From a virus (lineage: Duplodnaviria; Heunggongvirae; Uroviricota; Caudoviricetes), in IMG/VR virus record IMGVR_UViG_3300037245_002365: DNA of 64,000 nt. One strand, written 5' to 3'. Below the pieces are notes generated by a model that searched no databases, was not told the origin of the DNA, and worked only from the letters and a program-made list of their open reading frames with translations. Each line of letters starts with the position of its first letter. The first letter of the stretch is position 1. The translations under genes were made by a program, and so were the position numbers. Shown piece by piece: positions 3,834-30,048 of this stretch.

Positions 3834-4133
3834 ATGGGAACATTTGGAAACAGACAGACTCTTCATGAACATGAGGAAGAAATAAAAAGACTCAGCGAAT
3901 CAGGCCACGAAGGGCGTAGACAGCCCCCACAGCCTCCGATACTGCCTTACGAAGAGTGTTGGGCAAAACATGAACCAGCGTTTGAACATATGGACATAAT
4001 GGAACTAGCTATGCTAATTTCAGCATCTTCAAAATCAAAAGACCCAAGTGATATTACCTTTAACAGGGCTATCCATTGGGAAATAAAATTGAGGAGCCAA
4101 AAACGCGGAAAGTATGCGGAGGAGAAGCAGTGA
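3834..4133 (+). CDS. Hypothetical protein
   Basis: 99-aa ORF. Confidence 0.55.
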   Translation: MGTFGNRQTLHEHEEEIKRLSESGHEGRRQPPQPPILPYEECWAKHEPAFEHMDIMELAMLISASSKSKDPSDITFNRAIHWEIKLRSQKRGKYAEEKQ

Positions 4134-4907: not shown

Positions 4908-4954
4908 CTAAAAGCATTTCGCCCTTGTAGTTCAATAGGATAGAACCCAAGTCT

Positions 4955-5449
4955 TTGAAGAAACAAGTTAAAAAACAAAAGGAGCCCTCTAAGTGGAAGG
5001 TTCAAAAGATTATCAAAAAAGGTGATTATAATTATGTGTTATTACCAGAACATCCCAATGCTACAAACAATGGTTATGTTTTGGAACACAGGGTTGTAAT
5101 GGAAAAGCATCTTAATAGGCTTTTGAACTCAAAGGAAGTTGTACATCATAAAAACGGCAATAAGAAGCAAAATGGTGTAGCAAATTTAGAAATTTTAGAT
5201 AAAGTAGAACATACAAAAAATCACCAAAAGCACAGAACTACTTCAATGATAAAATTGCAGTGCCCAAGTTGTAAAAAGGAATTTGATAGAAGAAAAGGAC
5301 AAACCCATCTACAGAAACCCCAAACTTGGACAGCTTGTTCTAGAAGTTGCAGAGGAAAGTTTTCTAGATTAATACAACTTCAAGGAAAAACCTTAGAGGT
5401 GGACAGGGCTATATCGGGGAACGTCCTCCAAGAATATGTCTTGGGATAA
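4955..5449 (+). CDS. Intron-encoded HNH homing endonuclease
   Basis: GYVLEHRVVME...VVHHKNGNK..N...NL HNH core plus C-terminal CxxC...CSxxC; start codon uncertain. Confidence 0.85.
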   Translation: MKKQVKKQKEPSKWKVQKIIKKGDYNYVLLPEHPNATNNGYVLEHRVVMEKHLNRLLNSKEVVHHKNGNKKQNGVANLEILDKVEHTKNHQKHRTTSMIKLQCPSCKKEFDRRKGQTHLQKPQTWTACSRSCRGKFSRLIQLQGKTLEVDRAISGNVLQEYVLG

Positions 5450-5574
5450 TCCCGAGCAAACTATGATAATAGGATGCGTAGAGGCCATACGCCCTGCAGC
5501 TGAAACGCTGAAGAGATGGTCCAGACCACAATACTTTAAAAGTAGTTAGTAAATGGAAAATCTAATGTGGTAGG
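4956..5574 (+). mobile_element. Group I intron with HNH ORF
   Basis: 5' exon ends in U, intron ends in G; P3 cagggc(5404)/gccctg(5491), P4 tcggg/cccga, P7 ggcca(5483)/tggtc(5517), P8 cagc/gctg, P9 accaca/tgtggt. Confidence 0.85.
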
Positions 5575-5728
5575 CTAAACTTGTAATCCCGGTTCGAGTC
5601 CGGGTAAGGGTACAAAAATAGGAAAAATAAAATGGACGTTTCATCAGCACTCGTATGTGTAATGCTATGGATAGCATTCATAACGATCGTAATGTTGGTA
5701 ATACCAACAACTAAACGGAAAGGTTATA

Positions 5729-6031
5729 ATGGCTAAAGAAAATAAAGTAGTTTGTCCTTCACAAGAGGAACTGCCTAATAACGAGGTAATTTGGCAGGGA
5801 ACTGTTGACGGAATACCTTGCAGAATAGTTTTAGGATTTAGATGGAGATTGCTACACGGCGCAGACGCGTATGAAGCCACGCCATTTTATACTTTTGAGT
5901 TGGCGAAAGAGCGGGACGCAATGCTGGAGTTGAGGTATACCGAAGCACCTAAAAGCGATATACCGGCTGAATTTATTCAAGAAGCTGCTGAAGCTTTACG
6001 AATTCAAAAAAGAAAGGTAAATGATGGCTAG
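5729..6031 (+). CDS. Hypothetical protein
   Basis: 100-aa ORF with RBS. Confidence 0.6.
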   Translation: MAKENKVVCPSQEELPNNEVIWQGTVDGIPCRIVLGFRWRLLHGADAYEATPFYTFELAKERDAMLELRYTEAPKSDIPAEFIQEAAEALRIQKRKVNDG

Positions 6032-6182
6032 ACAAAACAGACCAATGAAATACAATAAACCGTCTCCAAAGACAACCACAAGTGGTTGTGGTCACGGCGG
6101 TTCCAAAGAGGGCAAAACCAACAAAAAAGGTAGCCTTAAAAAGTATTGCGGTGGTGGCGGACCAAAAAGAAGAAAACACTAA
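6021..6182 (+). CDS. Small basic Lys/Gly-rich protein (53 aa, not in ORF track)
   Basis: RBS aaaggt; MMARQNRPMKYNKP...KKYCGGGGPKRRKH*. Confidence 0.55.
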   Translation: MMARQNRPMKYNKPSPKTTTSGCGHGGSKEGKTNKKGSLKKYCGGGGPKRRKH

Positions 6183-6188
6183 GTTTTC

Positions 6189-6274
6189 GGTGAGGTGGCC
6201 GAGTGGTCGATGGCAGCGGACTGTAAATCCGCCGGGTGTAATGCCCCTCGTAAGTTCGAATCTTACTCTCACCA
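6189..6274 (+). tRNA. tRNA-Tyr(GUA)
   Basis: gcgga-ctGTAaa-tccgc, long variable arm, acceptor ggtgagg/tctcacc. Confidence 0.95.
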
Positions 6275-6359
6275 CAAACGCAATTTTCCCGGCGTGTATT
6301 GCTATACGCAAAATACAAAGAACTTGCTTCAGGGATAAAACATTAAACCAGAAAAAACA

Positions 6360-6890
6360 ATGAAAGTTATAAACTTATTTGCAGGGCCTGGAATTGGCAA
6401 GTCTACAACAGCGGCCGGGGTTTTCTGGAAAATGAAAACACTTGGTTTTAAAGTTGAGCTTGTTACAGAATTCGCTAAGGGTCTTGTATACGCTAATGAT
6501 ATAAAATTACGTGATCAGTTATACGTATTCGCTAAACAAAATTGGAGATTATCAGTATTAGAGGGACAGGTTGATTATGCAATCACCGACTCACCACTTA
6601 TACTGAGCAATATCTATTTTGATAAACTAGACACTATGTATTCTGAAGAGTATTTTAAACCATTAGTTAAAGATACATTTGACCATTATTGGAATATCAA
6701 TTTCTTTATGAATAGAGATACTGAGACACACCCATATCAAAAGTATGGTAGAACTCAGACTTTAGAAGAAGCAAAAGAGATTGATGACAAAATAATGGAA
6801 TACTTGACCACTGAAGACATCATGTGGCATGACATAACGGTTGCAACTGCCGTCGATAATATTATCGAGGTAGTGCATCCACCGACGTAA
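6360..6890 (+). CDS. P-loop kinase/ATPase (NadR-kinase-like AAA_28 type)
   Basis: NLFAGPGIGKSTTAA, E+VTEFAK, ITDSPL, RxQT..EA motifs. Confidence 0.75.
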   Translation: MKVINLFAGPGIGKSTTAAGVFWKMKTLGFKVELVTEFAKGLVYANDIKLRDQLYVFAKQNWRLSVLEGQVDYAITDSPLILSNIYFDKLDTMYSEEYFKPLVKDTFDHYWNINFFMNRDTETHPYQKYGRTQTLEEAKEIDDKIMEYLTTEDIMWHDITVATAVDNIIEVVHPPT

Positions 6891-6906
6891 ACGAAAGGAA
6901 ACAAAA

Positions 6907-7578
6907 ATGCGTAATACTCGCTTATTTGTTTTTGCAATGATTGCTATGTTGTTCGCAACACTGGCATTTCCAACTGAACTCGATGCACAACGCCGTGGCG
7001 GTAGCAGATCACGCTCCACCAGAACACGGGTTTCACGACCCAAGACTGTAAAAGCCCCAAAGGTTACAGCAAAGAAAGCTACGACCAAAAAAGCTACCTC
7101 TGCAACAAGAGGAAGTAAAGCAACGGTGAAACGTAGCGCAACCGATCAAAAGTCTTTTAATAAGGCCAAAGCGAATGGTACTGCTTACAAGAGCAAAGCC
7201 GAAGCAACTTCAGCCTTTAAGACAAAAAACGCAGCGAAATATCCAGCAAAATACACCAGTAAACCAGCTACACGACCAGACCATATACCACAATCAACCT
7301 CTGTTGGTGGAAACACATATAATGTGTCATACAATCAAGGGATGGGTGGATACGGTTACATGGGAATATCGGGCTCGTGGATGATGTATAGTGCGATGAC
7401 TGATGTAATAATGCTAAGTACACTAATGTCCAGGAATAATTACTATTATGATCCAGTGGTCGCAGGAGCACCTGTAGCCGTGGTTCGTACCAGTAATGGG
7501 CCCGCTACACTTTTTGGTATTATTGTGATATTGGTTGTTATACTCTATTGCGTCAAATTCTTGAAAGACGACCTTTAA
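6907..7578 (+). CDS. Exported/membrane protein with Lys/Thr/Ala-rich low-complexity region
   Basis: Signal peptide-like N-terminus, C-terminal TM helix; first gene of PspA/channel cluster. Confidence 0.65.
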   Translation: MRNTRLFVFAMIAMLFATLAFPTELDAQRRGGSRSRSTRTRVSRPKTVKAPKVTAKKATTKKATSATRGSKATVKRSATDQKSFNKAKANGTAYKSKAEATSAFKTKNAAKYPAKYTSKPATRPDHIPQSTSVGGNTYNVSYNQGMGGYGYMGISGSWMMYSAMTDVIMLSTLMSRNNYYYDPVVAGAPVAVVRTSNGPATLFGIIVILVVILYCVKFLKDDL

Positions 7579-9915: not shown

Positions 9916-9999
9916 AGGCCCGTCGCATAGTCTGGTTTATTGCACCGGTCTCCAAAACCGGTCCGTAAGGAATCCTGGGTTCAAATCCTAGCGGGTCTG
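9916..9999 (+). tRNA. tRNA-Trp(CCA) with 13-nt variable arm
   Basis: aggcccg/cgggtct acceptor; ccggt-ctCCAaa-accgg; variable tccgtaaggaatc. Confidence 0.88.
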
Positions 10000-10024
10000 C
10001 TACAACAAAAAACAACAAGGTAAA

Positions 10025-10234
10025 ATGCTACATATTACACAAGACGATGAAACAGGGATAGGAACAATTTATGTTAGCGATAACATAGATACTCCTATAG
10101 GAGAATCTCGCGATTCTGAGTTCGGGGAGTTTATATTTAATTACAGCGATTCAGGTGAATTAATAAGCATCAACTATTTAAGTATAGACGATTTAATAGA
10201 GTTCATAACTGTTTACGCAGTACCAAAACAATAA
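10025..10234 (+). CDS. Small acidic protein (DUF2283-like)
   Basis: YV.D.....ES......I.NYSDSGELISI pattern. Confidence 0.45.
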   Translation: MLHITQDDETGIGTIYVSDNIDTPIGESRDSEFGEFIFNYSDSGELISINYLSIDDLIEFITVYAVPKQ

Positions 10235-10240
10235 CGCTAA

Positions 10241-10380
10241 GCGGCCATGGCGGAACTGGTAGACGCACAAGACTTTTTAAAACATGGACTGTTTATAGAA
10301 ACCTTGATCAGAGCGATTCTGATAGTCCAGCAAAATCTTGCGCCCGAGAGGGCATCCCGGTTCGAGTCCGGGTGGCCGTA
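10241..10380 (+). tRNA. tRNA-Leu (probably UAA) with ~56-nt insertion in the anticodon loop
   Basis: Leu-type D-loop gcggaactggtagacgc, anticodon stem caaga/tcttg, variable arm gccc-gaga-gggc, A73; insert about 10276..10331. Confidence 0.8.
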
Positions 10381-10386
10381 CAAAAT

Positions 10387-10463
10387 ACTCACATAACTCA
10401 GTCTGGTAGAGTGCAACGCTGATAACGTTGTGGCCGGTGGTTCGAATCCATCTGTGAGTACCA
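10387..10463 (+). tRNA. tRNA-Ile(GAU), CCA encoded
   Basis: caacg-ctGATaa-cgttg; actcaca/tgtgagt + aCCA. Confidence 0.95.
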
Positions 10464-10815: not shown

Positions 10816-11996
10816 TGGAACACTTTCTTGATAATGACATGTATAAGCTGTCTATGCAGAATTTGGCAGTACGGCAATTTCCAGATGATTACGCTAGATA
10901 TGAGTTCTTTAATCGTGGTGGCACACCAATTCCAAAGGAAATTGGAGAGTCTATACACACTGATATACAGAGCTTTGCCGATTTTAATCTTGAGGCACTG
11001 CCTTTATCGTGGCTTAGAGAAGCCTTACCATTTTTGTCACCGATGTATCTTGACTTCCTTAAAGGGTATAGGTTTGATGCATCTGAAGTCAAAATGGGAT
11101 ATCCAGACGGGGATGATGATCTGAAAATACATATTGAGGGACCATGGTATCGTACCATTTTATGGGAAGTACCTCTGATGGCTTTAATTTCAGAAAATTA
11201 TTTTAAGTACACTGGACAAACTCCTTTCGGAATAAGAAAGGGTGATTGGCCTGCTGTTTGGATGGAGATTAAAAAGAAGAGTGTTGAAAAGGCAAAGTTG
11301 ATTGATGGGTACGATCTTACTGTCGCTGACTTTGGTACGCGACGTAGATACTCGCCTAGAGTTCATGATGCAATGATGGAATCATTAGGCAACCATTTGG
11401 TTGGATCTAGTAATGTTTGGCAGGCTATGACCTACAGAACAAAGCCTATTGGTACTCATGCTCATGAATGGTTTCAATTTCACGCTGCAAAGTATGGATA
11501 TGTTTCAGCAAACAGAATGGCACTGGAAAATTGGTCAAGGGGTTATCGAGGCAATCTCGGTATTGCTCTTACAGACACATTCACTACGGATGTTTTTCTG
11601 CGGGACTTTGATGCCTATTATGCCAAACTATTTGATGGAGTACGGCACGATAGTGGTGATCCTTATGAATTTGCTAACAAAATCATAGGTCATTATGACA
11701 ATTTAGGCATTGATCCAAAATCAAAGACAATTGTCTTTTCAGATAATTTAACTGTTGAAAAAGCAGTAAAAATATCTGAAACACATAAGGACCACATTAA
11801 ATGTTCCTTTGGTATTGGCACACACTTAACAAACGATGTTGGAGTTAAACCTCTAAACATGGTTATTAAGTTAACCGGTGTTAGAGCGGCTGACGGCAGT
11901 TGGAAAGAAGCAATCAAACTATCAGACGATGTTGGAAAGCATACTGGTAGTGAGGAAGAAATTAAACTATGTAAGGAAACATTGGATGTCAAGTAA
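10815..11996 (+). CDS. pncB: Nicotinate phosphoribosyltransferase
   Basis: DNDMYKLSMQ, DFGTRRRYS, GTHAHEW, TDTFTT, GVRHDSGDP, VFSDNL, FGIGTHLTND, KLSDD.GKHTG. Confidence 0.92.
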   Translation: MEHFLDNDMYKLSMQNLAVRQFPDDYARYEFFNRGGTPIPKEIGESIHTDIQSFADFNLEALPLSWLREALPFLSPMYLDFLKGYRFDASEVKMGYPDGDDDLKIHIEGPWYRTILWEVPLMALISENYFKYTGQTPFGIRKGDWPAVWMEIKKKSVEKAKLIDGYDLTVADFGTRRRYSPRVHDAMMESLGNHLVGSSNVWQAMTYRTKPIGTHAHEWFQFHAAKYGYVSANRMALENWSRGYRGNLGIALTDTFTTDVFLRDFDAYYAKLFDGVRHDSGDPYEFANKIIGHYDNLGIDPKSKTIVFSDNLTVEKAVKISETHKDHIKCSFGIGTHLTNDVGVKPLNMVIKLTGVRAADGSWKEAIKLSDDVGKHTGSEEEIKLCKETLDVK

Positions 11997-14115: not shown

Positions 14116-14135
14116 CAAAATAAATTGGTAAACGC

Positions 14136-14164
14136 TTGACATACTCGTTATTTGTGCGTATATT
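14136..14164 (+). promoter_or_regulatory. Sigma70-type promoter giving a leaderless HNH mRNA
   Basis: TTGACA-17-TATATT then 5 nt to ATG 14170. Confidence 0.75.
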
Positions 14165-14169
14165 AGAGT

Positions 14170-14616
14170 ATGAATAAATATCGTACACAAGAATGGGAAA
14201 CCAAAATTATTGAAGCCTGTAAAGACGCACATAGTATGGCACATGCTTGCGCTTCAATAGGCATGAACCATAACACGTTTATAGTACATGCCAAACGTTT
14301 AGGAGTTTACACCACTAACCAAGGAGGTAAAGGAACTAACAAACCCAAACCTTCAATACCACTTAGTGAAATTATATATAAAGGAATTCAACCACAATAT
14401 AGAAGCAGTAACTTAAGAGTACGTCTTATTAAAGAAGGCATAAAGGAATATAAATGTGAAAAATGTGAAAAAGTTGAGTGGATGGGTAAACCAATACCAC
14501 TAGAACTACATCATTTGGACGGTAACAGTCATAACCATTTATTAGAAAACTTACAGTTACTTTGTCCCAATTGTCATACACTTACCGACAATTACGGATC
14601 TAAAAACAAAAAATAG
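14170..14616 (+). CDS. HNH endonuclease
   Basis: CEKC...LELHHLDGNSHNH.LENLQLLCPNCH. Confidence 0.9.
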   Translation: MNKYRTQEWETKIIEACKDAHSMAHACASIGMNHNTFIVHAKRLGVYTTNQGGKGTNKPKPSIPLSEIIYKGIQPQYRSSNLRVRLIKEGIKEYKCEKCEKVEWMGKPIPLELHHLDGNSHNHLLENLQLLCPNCHTLTDNYGSKNKK

Positions 14617-14622
14617 ATTTAA

Positions 14623-14761
14623 GCTCCCCTGGGGGAATTGGTAGACCCGCCAGATTTAATTGCATGGACTGCTTTAATGAAAAGTTTAATTGGAGCAATA
14701 CCAACAGTTCAACGGATCTGGTGCCCGAAAGGGCGTGTCGGTTCGAGTCCGACGGGGAGTA
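14623..14761 (+). tRNA. tRNA-Leu (probably UAG) with ~55-nt insertion in the anticodon loop
   Basis: D-loop gggaattggtagaccc, anticodon stem ccaga/tctgg, variable arm gccc-gaaa-gggc, A73; insert about 14659..14713. Confidence 0.8.
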
Positions 14762-14817
14762 CGAGAATAGCAATAACAATACTCAAAAACGTAAAATTAA
14801 AACAAGGAACACAAGCT

Positions 14818-29134: not shown

Positions 29135-29614
29135 ATGGATACTTTAATTGAAAAAAAATGTGAATTTTGTGAGAACACTTTTCTCGCAAAAGCTAAAGAG
29201 AGCACACGCGGTGGAGCACGCTTTTGTTCTAGATCTTGCTCTGGAAGCCATTCAAATAAAATAAGACCATATGTTGATCTTTTATGCAAAAAATGTGGAA
29301 AAAGTTTTTCCACAAAATGCAAACAAGCATTATATTGTTCTAAAGAATGTTCTTACAGAAAAAGCACTAGCTATAGATATAGAAACCACCTTAATGCAAA
29401 AATTAAAAAAATAATTAGCACAAGTATTTGTTTTAATTGTGGTTGGGATAAAACTACTTGTGATGTACACCATGTAATACCTCGTAAAAAAGGCGGTACT
29501 GATGAACTTCATAATTTAATAATTGTATGTCCTAATTGTCATAGATTAGCTGATAGGCATTTATTAAATTTAACAACAATTCCAACAGTTGCTAATAAAA
29601 CATTAAACACTTAG
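29135..29614 (+). CDS. HNH endonuclease with Zn-ribbon repeats, leaderless; stop overlaps first base of tmRNA
   Basis: CFNCGW..CDVHHVIPRKKGGTDE..NLIIVCPNCH; TTGACA(29101)-17-TATATT(29124), 5 nt to ATG. Confidence 0.9.
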   Translation: MDTLIEKKCEFCENTFLAKAKESTRGGARFCSRSCSGSHSNKIRPYVDLLCKKCGKSFSTKCKQALYCSKECSYRKSTSYRYRNHLNAKIKKIISTSICFNCGWDKTTCDVHHVIPRKKGGTDELHNLIIVCPNCHRLADRHLLNLTTIPTVANKTLNT

Positions 29615-30011
29615 GGCCTAAACTGGATTCGACGGATTGAGATGAAGATAAGTAAGCAAGCAGACATTGAGCAGATGTCTTAAAAAAGTTCAAAAAACAC
29701 AAATGCTAAAAAAGCAAATATAGTACCTTTCGAGTTACTAGCTTCTCAGAATTCTACAGGTGCCATGCCTGTCGCATTCGCTGCGTAAGTAGAGAAGTAA
29801 TCAAGCCCGCCACCGGGGGTTAATCCGGTATGGACAGTCTTGTACCTTCTCGCAAGTACAGGATTAAATTAGCGGGACTGCACAACGGATGCCCTCGGGC
29901 AAAATGATCACAGACTTGGCTGTTGTGCTAAGACGCCTCGGGTTTTGATCTAAGCTTGTAGAAAACGAATTGGATTTCTTTTCGGACGCGGCTTCGATGC
30001 CGCTAGGTCCA
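29614..30011 (+). ncRNA. ssrA: tmRNA
   Basis: gggccta/taggtcc acceptor with G3-U70, 5' ggattcgac, 3' ggacgcggcttcgatgccgc; tag frame 29705..29788 AKKANIVPFELLASQNSTGAMPVAFAA*. Confidence 0.92.
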
Positions 30012-30012
30012 C

Positions 30013-30048
30013 AAAAAAAGGTTATAGTAAACACTATAGCCTTTTTTT
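30013..30048 (+). terminator. Intrinsic (bidirectional-looking) terminator
   Basis: A-run, ggttatag/ctatagcc stem, T-run. Confidence 0.8.

Follow-up and report, generated by a model that had tools for sequence, protein, structure and literature searches.

Short Inserts in the Anticodon Loops of Both tRNA-Leu Genes of a Giant Marine-Sediment Phage: Candidate Protein-Spliced Mini-Introns

Introns of bacterial tRNA genes are, according to the textbook rule, self-splicing group I introns, and tRNA splicing that depends on proteins is a feature of archaea and eukaryotes. The group I rule cannot hold for a 56-nt insert in a phage tRNA gene that is evidently maintained, yet the setting of this insert is bacterial. 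Such an insert was predicted from sequence in a tRNA-Leu gene of the window analyzed here, a 64,000-nt stretch of a phage-like marine-sediment contig of 228 kb. What kind of element is this insert, and how could the tRNA gene that carries it be of use to the phage? The window is rich in tRNA genes and also contains one tmRNA gene (29614-30014, 107.5 bits), a phage tmRNA with a 27-residue tag ending in AFAA. The phage is a giant one, and both of its tRNA-Leu genes were found to be interrupted in the anticodon loop by an insert of 55-56 nt (Table 1).

A class II tRNA-Leu gene can be read at 10241-10380, with 63 bases in the anticodon loop versus the normal 7. Default ARAGORN and the Rfam gathering scan both miss this interrupted gene. 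When ARAGORN was run in intron mode, it reported a tRNA-Leu at 10241-10381 with an insert of 56 nt, and the Rfam tRNA model, which scored 39.8 bits against a cut-off of 29, extended over 10241-10380 and placed an insertion of 59 nt in the anticodon loop. These results confirm the original prediction of an intact tRNA-Leu with a discrete 56-nt insert in its anticodon loop. An identical copy of the interrupted tRNA-Leu(UAA) gene was present in a second sample. The stretch had no blastn match among cultured phages, and the two small ORFs flanking the gene belonged to no family and had near-identical relatives only.

Table 1. Positions of the interrupted tRNA-Leu genes, their inserts and associated genes in the window, with the loci of HNH homologues (L numbers) in other phage sequences
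Feature	Position	Strand	Evidence	Remarks
tRNA-Arg(UCU)	4921..5613	+	ARAGORN	same phage; 610-nt group I intron after U34
HNH_3 ORF within tRNA-Arg(UCU) intron	4955-5449		Pfam HNH_3	
5' exon, tRNA-Leu(UAA)	10241..10275	+	intron-mode ARAGORN, Rfam tRNA model; related-phage contigs align to 10275	acceptor 5' strand, D arm, anticodon stem 5' strand, C32 U33 U34
Insert copy 1	10276..10331	+	sequence; structure common to copy 2	56 nt
Copy 1 leader	10276-10284	+		9 nt, A/U-rich
Copy 1 P1	10285-10290 with 10324-10329	+		
Copy 1 hairpin A	10291-10302	+		
Copy 1 joiner	10303-10306			
Copy 1 hairpin B	10307-10323	+		loop GCGAU
Copy 1 tail	10330-10331	+		GC, 2 nt
3' exon, tRNA-Leu(UAA)	10332..10380	+	ARAGORN, Rfam; L308 blastn match begins exactly at 10332	A35 A36 A37 A38, anticodon stem 3' strand, long variable arm, T arm, acceptor 3' strand, discriminator A
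Promoter-like TTGACA / TATATT pair	14135-14164			upstream of HNH gene
Free-standing HNH endonuclease gene	14170..14616	+		ends 6 nt before tRNA-Leu(UAG)
5' exon, tRNA-Leu(UAG)	14623..14658	+	intron-mode ARAGORN, sequence	
Insert copy 2	14659..14713	+	copy-1 covariance model, ARAGORN	55 nt
Copy 2 P1	14665-14671 with 14705-14711	+		preceded by 6-nt leader
Copy 2 hairpin A	14672-14684	+		
Copy 2 hairpin B	14690-14704	+		loop includes GCAAU; tail AC
3' exon, tRNA-Leu(UAG)	14714..14761	+	ARAGORN, sequence	
HNH homologue inside group I intron of tRNA-Leu(UAA) or tRNA-Leu(UAG)	L298, L300, L304, L307, L309			
HNH homologue, free-standing, adjoining uninterrupted tRNA-Leu	L299, L305, cultured Edwardsiella phage PEi20, 642-kb phage LR756502			
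HNH homologue, free-standing, directly upstream of tRNA-Leu(UAA)	L035/L070			53% identical; tRNA carries an unrelated 62-nt mini-insert

The borders of the insert and the anticodon had been left as alternatives in the original prediction, in which removal of 10276-10331 gave UAA and removal of 10275-10330 gave CAA; both statements are arithmetically correct. Bacterial tRNA-Leu genes sharing the D arm and anticodon stem have UAA in 99 cases and CAA in 21 (21 of 122), which favors UAA but leaves the CAA reading compatible with the sequence alone. U34, found in most other tRNAs of this phage, also favors UAA. A related phage (helicase 53% identical) with a similar tRNA cluster has an uninterrupted tRNA-Leu(UAA) with the loop CUUAAAA as well as a tRNA-Leu(UAG). 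Two related-phage contigs from a marine metagenome of another study matched the upstream ORF and 5' exon with approximately 80% identity; in both, the match ended exactly at 10275 and was followed by AAAA, the 3' strand of the anticodon stem and the variable arm. These two contigs represent the insert-less allele, which fixes the insert as 10276-10331 and the anticodon as UAA and excludes the CAA reading.

A third relative, L308, in which the neighboring ORF is 81% identical, has the orthologous tRNA-Leu(UAA) gene split by a 773-nt insert between U33 and U34, one base away from the mini-insert site. An HNH_3 ORF lies within that insert, and R and S elements of group I type can be recognized in it; the insert has no Rfam match and is probably a group I intron. 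The exons of the spliced tRNA-Leu(UAA) and of the L308 orthologue are 88% identical. Together with the insert-less contigs, L308 and the gene described here demonstrate that one orthologous tRNA-Leu(UAA) gene exists in three states: empty, with a probable group I intron, and with a mini-insert.

A covariance-model search for the insert, which had been suggested along with the original prediction, recovered a second copy: a model built solely from copy 1 found copy 2 with E = 0.002 in 105 kb, and nothing else. Copy 2 interrupts the tRNA-Leu(UAG) gene, and its removal leaves the loop UUUAGGA with U33 and G37. The inserts are 64% identical and the exons 74%. Both inserts have CAUGGACUG on the 5' side of the closing helix (P1), AGUYCARC on the 3' side and a GCRAU loop, and the stems of both hairpins differ in sequence between the copies with their pairing retained. 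In a model-fitted alignment of the 2 copies, 95% of cells paired, and pairing fell to 26-50% when the partners were slid out of register. Four pairs were altered on both sides, 3 of them within the insert, and one G-C pair became G-U. RNAalifold run on the 2 copies gave the same three-way junction, so the junction proposed for copy 1 is borne out by copy 2 and by compensatory pair changes, although the covariation, coming from two sequences, is statistically weak (35 of 500 shuffles equaled it). The junction is also not the minimum-energy fold: for the copy 1 insert alone it has -11.3 kcal/mol versus -14.2 for the minimum, and it lies approximately 3 kcal/mol above the minimum in each copy. 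In copy 1, P1 and hairpin B have 6 bp each with no spacer, and in copy 2 they have 7 and 4 (or 5) bp; hairpin B thus abuts the 3' strand of the closing helix to give approximately 12 stacked pairs, like the stack of acceptor and T arms. Retained pairing in 95% of cells at only 64% identity, with 3 two-sided pair changes and the change from G-C to G-U, indicates that the insert is under structural selection.

Both copies have an equivalent 3' border, directly after the RC tail. The 5' border lies 9 nt before P1 and at position 34/35 of the tRNA in copy 1 versus 6 nt before P1 and at 35/36 in copy 2, and one structural ruler for both 5' cuts was rejected on these grounds. A pseudoknot between loop B and the leader was also rejected, having five complementary bases in copy 2 and none in copy 1. 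With covariance models R1 and R2, neither the window nor the 45 kb of genome upstream nor approximately 1.2 Mb of other loci yielded a third copy. One hit, at L005 (E = 0.14), was not within a tRNA. Exact and degenerate scans of IMG/VR for the insert motif gave no match, and the 20 hits from a scan of a single metagenome were all due to chance (ordinary tRNA-His genes or coding DNA). L001, a PncB relative, was without tRNAs.

Approximately 110 kb of the phage genome encodes tRNAs for all 20 amino acids, and the only tRNA-Leu genes in that set are the 2 interrupted ones, UAA and UAG, which together would cover all six Leu codons. The phage uses TTA, the codon read by UAA, more often than any other Leu codon. 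Between the spliced tRNA-Leu(UAA) and the L308 orthologue, 10 of 84 positions differ with no stem broken, and the differences include two full compensatory pairs (3:70 in the acceptor and 11:24 in the D stem). A73, the D loop, the T loop and the long variable arm of tRNA-Leu(UAA) are all intact, and the restored loops (CUUAAAA and UUUAGGA) have U33 and a purine at 37. Leu encoded nowhere else in a complete tRNA set, the TTA usage, the compensatory pairs and the canonical loops argue that both interrupted genes are maintained. Maintenance of the genes does not by itself show splicing.

We compared the inserts with the elements known to interrupt RNA genes. Group I introns have a catalytic core (P3-P9) and a length of roughly 200 nt or more, with a 5' exon ending in U and an intron ending in G. 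At 56 and 55 nt, the inserts are far too short for a group I or group II intron, as had been stated for copy 1. The 5' exon of copy 1 does end in U, but the insert ends in C and not G; in copy 2, under the UAG reading, A precedes the insert and the insert ends in C. The group I model RF00028 had no match at either insert locus at E up to 10, and the same model detected the introns of L298, L300 and tRNA-Arg. Over 10200-10420 and 14590-14800, no Rfam family matched either insert at E up to 10.

In a bulge-helix-bulge, a 4-bp helix separates two bulges of 3 nt that lie on opposite strands and each contain a splice site. In agreement with the original prediction, no canonical motif of this kind could be drawn by inspection at either locus. 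The 3' border lies at a 2-nt bulge (GC or AC) beside a 3-4-bp extension of the anticodon stem by U:A or U:G pairs; the strand opposite has a 7-nt loop, and the bulges are located 5' of the central helix strands rather than 3'. Cleavage by RNase P and RNase Z at the ends of the inner helix, a mode of removal proposed for tRNA-shaped inserts, was rejected because the remaining loops would have 17 and 14 nt. RNase III was also discarded because the borders would give a 2-3-nt 5' overhang instead of a 2-nt 3' overhang, and also because the helix is only 3-4 bp. The 6-7-bp arms of P1 could count as inverted repeats; however, a miniature inverted-repeat transposable element was rejected, since no direct repeat flanks both copies and no further copies were present in approximately 1.3 Mb.

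The free-standing gene beside copy 2 has an HNH motif visible in its translation, with a Pfam HNH score of 18.8 bits that is below the cut-off, and 1939 homologues were found. In every context examined, the homologues lay in or beside a tRNA-Leu gene: inside group I introns (46-68% identity; RF00028 confirmed the introns of L298 and L300), or free-standing next to uninterrupted tRNA-Leu genes, including one in a cultured phage. At L035, the free-standing homologue is directly upstream of a tRNA-Leu gene with an insert that is unrelated to ours, 62 nt in length, so the pairing of a free-standing HNH gene with a tRNA-Leu mini-insert recurs independently. No HNH gene adjoins copy 1. From the gene neighborhoods, we infer that the HNH enzyme would cut the uninterrupted tRNA-Leu gene. 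The HNH_3 of the L308 intron is unrelated to the HNH of the window, so several nuclease families converge on this loop. The tRNA-Arg(UCU) intron scored 40 bits with RF00028 (E = 1.4e-8), below the gathering score; counting this intron and the two tRNA-Leu inserts, three tRNA genes of the phage carry inserts in the anticodon loop.

Other features of these HNH loci were observed. A conserved block, GGTAAAC-R-CTTGAC ... GTATATTA, lies just upstream of the HNH genes of the window (block at 14118-14169), L304, L305 and L307; it has the look of a portable promoter carried along with the HNH gene inside and outside introns. The HNH ORF at L035 (8270-8782) is without a stop codon of its own and runs through the 5' exon of the tRNA-Leu to a TGA inside the insert. 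At L300 (2702-3483), the HNH homologue is on the strand opposite the tRNA-Leu and its group I intron, and the same locus has a match to the manA RNA motif at 3869-4042 (49.3 bits, just below the cut-off).

The original prediction had also referred to Rnl2 and PNKP of the phage. The 228-kb record does encode an RNA-ligase kit, composed of a ligase domain of the T4 Rnl1 type (PF09511, 387 aa) and an Rnl2-type RNA ligase domain (PF09414, 219 aa), both approximately 25 kb upstream and accompanied by a SpoU methylase, two Nudix proteins and a metallophosphoesterase. No phage PNKP was seen, only the Rnl1-like and Rnl2-type ligase domains and metallophosphoesterases. No candidate splicing endonuclease was found in the phage sequence examined.

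Taken together, a discrete insert that is too small, without a bulge-helix-bulge or ribozyme match, in a phage that encodes ligases, makes a protein-dependent mini-intron the leading reading. Since the insert is too small to self-splice, the same place in relatives is empty or has a self-splicing intron, and an HNH gene linked to tRNA-Leu is beside one copy, the insert is probably an intron of a little-known kind that shields the gene as well. We therefore tentatively favor a mini-intron that is spliced by proteins and also destroys the target of homing endonucleases, an explanation to which we give close to an even chance. Removal of the insert from the RNA, and the identity of the proteins responsible, are inferred parts of this explanation.

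At the DNA level, the insert would occupy the region of the anticodon loop where group I introns enter and to which the HNH family is tied. By breaking the target, it could keep the phage tRNA-Leu genes safe from the phage's own HNH (14170-14616) and from those of co-infecting relatives, in an arrangement resembling collaborative homing. At the RNA level, there would be no self-splicing; the three-way junction, with its sequence-conserved closing helix of CAUGGACUG paired with AGUYCARC, may mark the insert for protein enzymes. The 5' cut of a putative endonuclease would follow U34 in copy 1 and A35 in copy 2, and its 3' cut would follow the conserved RC tail; the exon halves, held by the anticodon stem, could be sealed by the phage Rnl1-like or Rnl2-type ligase to give products with the canonical loops CUUAAAA and UUUAGGA. 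Such a pathway, protein-cut and Rnl1/Rnl2-sealed, would be a third route of phage tRNA splicing that is neither ribozyme nor bulge-helix-bulge, with its introns selected as immunity introns among co-infecting phages; we regard this broader proposal as possible, at somewhat less than an even chance. A shield had been proposed originally as well, against host anticodon nucleases. Nothing points there; the context is instead that of a DNA-level shield against tRNA-Leu homing endonucleases.

The DNA-level part of this explanation could also hold if the insert were never removed. The insert could be an unspliced scar of intron and endonuclease traffic, perhaps a collapsed group I intron, kept because it makes the DNA immune to homing endonucleases; both tRNA-Leu genes would then be dead, with host tRNA-Leu used in their place. 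The site is certainly a hot spot, with empty, group I and mini-insert alleles of one gene all in existence, and the lack of any identified splicing machinery agrees with a scar. A decamer, GAUAGUCCAG, is shared by P1 and the 3' flank with the P7/S element of a tRNA-Leu group I intron, and the helix-hairpin-helix order of the insert recalls P7-P8-P7'. However, local alignments against five such introns were no better than shuffles (best p approximately 0.1), so descent from a group I intron was rejected as a finding; a collapsed group I intron is an attractive origin that we leave as a lead. Dead genes are also difficult to reconcile with 2 exon sets that are perfect cloverleaves with compensatory changes relative to the orthologue, with loop remnants that still yield canonical UAA and UAG loops, and with inserts that have diverged to 64% identity while keeping their helices. 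Leu would, moreover, be the sole amino acid absent from an otherwise complete tRNA set. We consider the scar, together with the death of both genes, unlikely.

Alternatively, the genes could be alive without splicing. A stable 141-nt tRNA-like RNA that does not decode could be the end product, serving as decoy, sensor or leucine donor. LeuRS does not read the anticodon, so charging or binding of the 141-nt RNA would still be possible; the RNA keeps an intact class II body with A73, the Leu identity element, and the structure of the insert is conserved. The same genome has other tRNA-like genes: two at L297 (5608-5785 and 5857-5978), located approximately 12-13 kb ahead of the window, in which the acceptor, D and T arms are normal and the middles, of 98 and approximately 50 nt, are abnormal. 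They are unrelated in sequence to the insert. Many such genes are found in IMG/VR, where L002-L118 include more than 70 distinct phage genes with a tRNA-Leu-type D loop and T arm, a paired acceptor stem and 70-100 nt between D loop and T arm, most without a recognizable anticodon stem; by sequence, these form a large, heterogeneous set of tRNA-like RNAs. A non-decoding RNA leaves unexplained, however, why exact deletions of 56 and 55 nt restore two complementary canonical Leu loops, why relatives have an ordinary tRNA-Leu(UAA) at the same place, and why no other tRNA-Leu is encoded. This makes it quite unlikely in our estimation.

A splicing route that dispenses with a protein endonuclease could be a new small ribozyme, in which the three-way junction cleaves itself at one or both borders and a ligase or the reverse reaction joins the exons. 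Conservation does occur where structure alone would not need it, in the sequence of P1, in the flanking CA and RC and in loop B (CA...G and RC flanks, GCRAU loop); the size and three-helix layout are within the range of small self-cleaving ribozymes, and the encoded ligases could seal the products. The hammerhead, twister, twister-sister, pistol, hatchet, hairpin and HDV-like models were, nevertheless, unmatched at both loci at E up to 10. The junction strands of 0-1, 4-5 and 0-1 nt do not fit a hammerhead core, the two 5' borders are structurally non-equivalent, and with two examples only the conservation may reflect recent common descent. A new ribozyme is therefore improbable.

Least probable is a group I remnant, a P7-P8-like piece spliced in trans by a ribozyme elsewhere such as the tRNA-Arg intron. 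In its favor, a P7-like helix and the S-element decamer are shared, the tRNA cluster itself includes a complete group I intron, and this very site is occupied by group I introns in relatives. Against it, the insert, at borders set by the insert-less allele, ends in C rather than G, no orphan group I 5' half (P3-P6) was found in approximately 110 kb, the similarity is not significant, and we know of no natural precedent for a group I remnant completed in trans.

A protein-spliced mini-intron has to be compared with several described systems. "New class," the term used in the original prediction, is too strong, although its protein-dependent part stands as the leading reading. Small introns in the tRNAs of Lak megaphages were reported as "enigmatic" and left unexplained (Devoto et al. 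2019, PMC6784885), and other phage tRNA-Leu(UAA) genes in IMG/VR have inserts of 49-62 nt (L044, L117, L035). These are likewise short anticodon-loop inserts of phage tRNAs in a bacterial setting, too small for group I, with borders set by insert-less alleles and a closing helix with a hairpin stacked by its 3' strand; the inserts described here belong to the same range (approximately 40-70 nt), restore a canonical 7-nt loop when removed and are absent in some alleles. The corresponding hairpin of L044 closely resembles hairpin B of copy 2. In contrast, the inserts of L044, L117 and L035 begin at the first base of the closing helix, end in a 4-nt ACCA/CCUA tail and resemble a miniature tRNA, whereas the present inserts have a 6-9-nt leader, a 2-nt RC tail and a sequence-conserved closing helix. 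No tRNA-like match to the insert was found in Rfam at E up to 10. The present insert is a distinct structural variant among small phage tRNA introns.

Group I introns of bacterial and phage tRNA-Leu (L298, L300, L304, L309 and, probably, L308) are alike in gene and site (33/34 or 34/35), in having the same HNH family nearby and in being present or absent among relatives. They are 670-770 nt in length compared to 56 nt here, and the insert has no catalytic core, RF00028 match or terminal G, with the HNH gene outside the tRNA. In collaborative homing, an ORF-less intron occupies the target of a free-standing neighboring endonuclease (PMC3984707; T4 mobE, PMC2790892). Copy 2 is similar in that a free-standing HNH, of a family tied to tRNA-Leu and 6 nt from tRNA-Leu(UAG), adjoins a gene whose presumed target holds an ORF-less insert, as recurs in L035; unlike copy 2, for which size excludes self-splicing, the introns described are self-splicing group I ribozymes.

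The ligases invite comparison with two systems in which proteins act on the anticodon loop. T4 Pnkp and Rnl1 repair tRNA that a host defense nuclease has cut in the anticodon loop, with no sequence removed. The tRNA genes of the present phage likewise have genes for an Rnl1-type and a second ligase among them, and Rnl1 seals nicked anticodon loops; the differences are that no polynucleotide kinase was seen and that the proposed route removes sequence. The introns of archaeal and eukaryal tRNAs (EndA/TSEN with RtcB or Trl1) share the protein-dependent logic of cutting and joining that we propose, and their position, too, can shift by one base between genes. In contrast to them, no bulge-helix-bulge and no splicing endonuclease were found here, and the phage tmRNA is a bacterial feature.

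If the inserts are spliced, a previously unrecognized endonuclease-plus-ligase pathway would operate in phage-infected bacteria, and the Rnl1 and Rnl2 ligases of phages would gain a routine job beyond the repair of damage from host defense. The rationale, which could extend to other inserts of this kind, is that the anticodon loop of tRNA-Leu is a battleground of homing endonucleases, where a tiny insert would be the cheapest erasure of a target. The three allelic states and the recurring HNH neighbor make this idea testable with cloned parts.

Several unusual tRNA genes were observed in the course of the analysis. In a related phage (L296, IMG/VR 3300025584_000003), a tRNA at 10868-10944 with the anticodon CUA, which reads amber, adjoins tRNA-Leu(UAG), and ARAGORN reported a tRNA-Asn with a 1492-nt insert at 5421-7006. 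Ordinary tRNA-Trp is class I. An 85-nt tRNA with the anticodon CCA (Trp) and a long variable arm is present in the window at 9916-10000 and in L308 at 1481-1562, conserved at the same place in this related phage.
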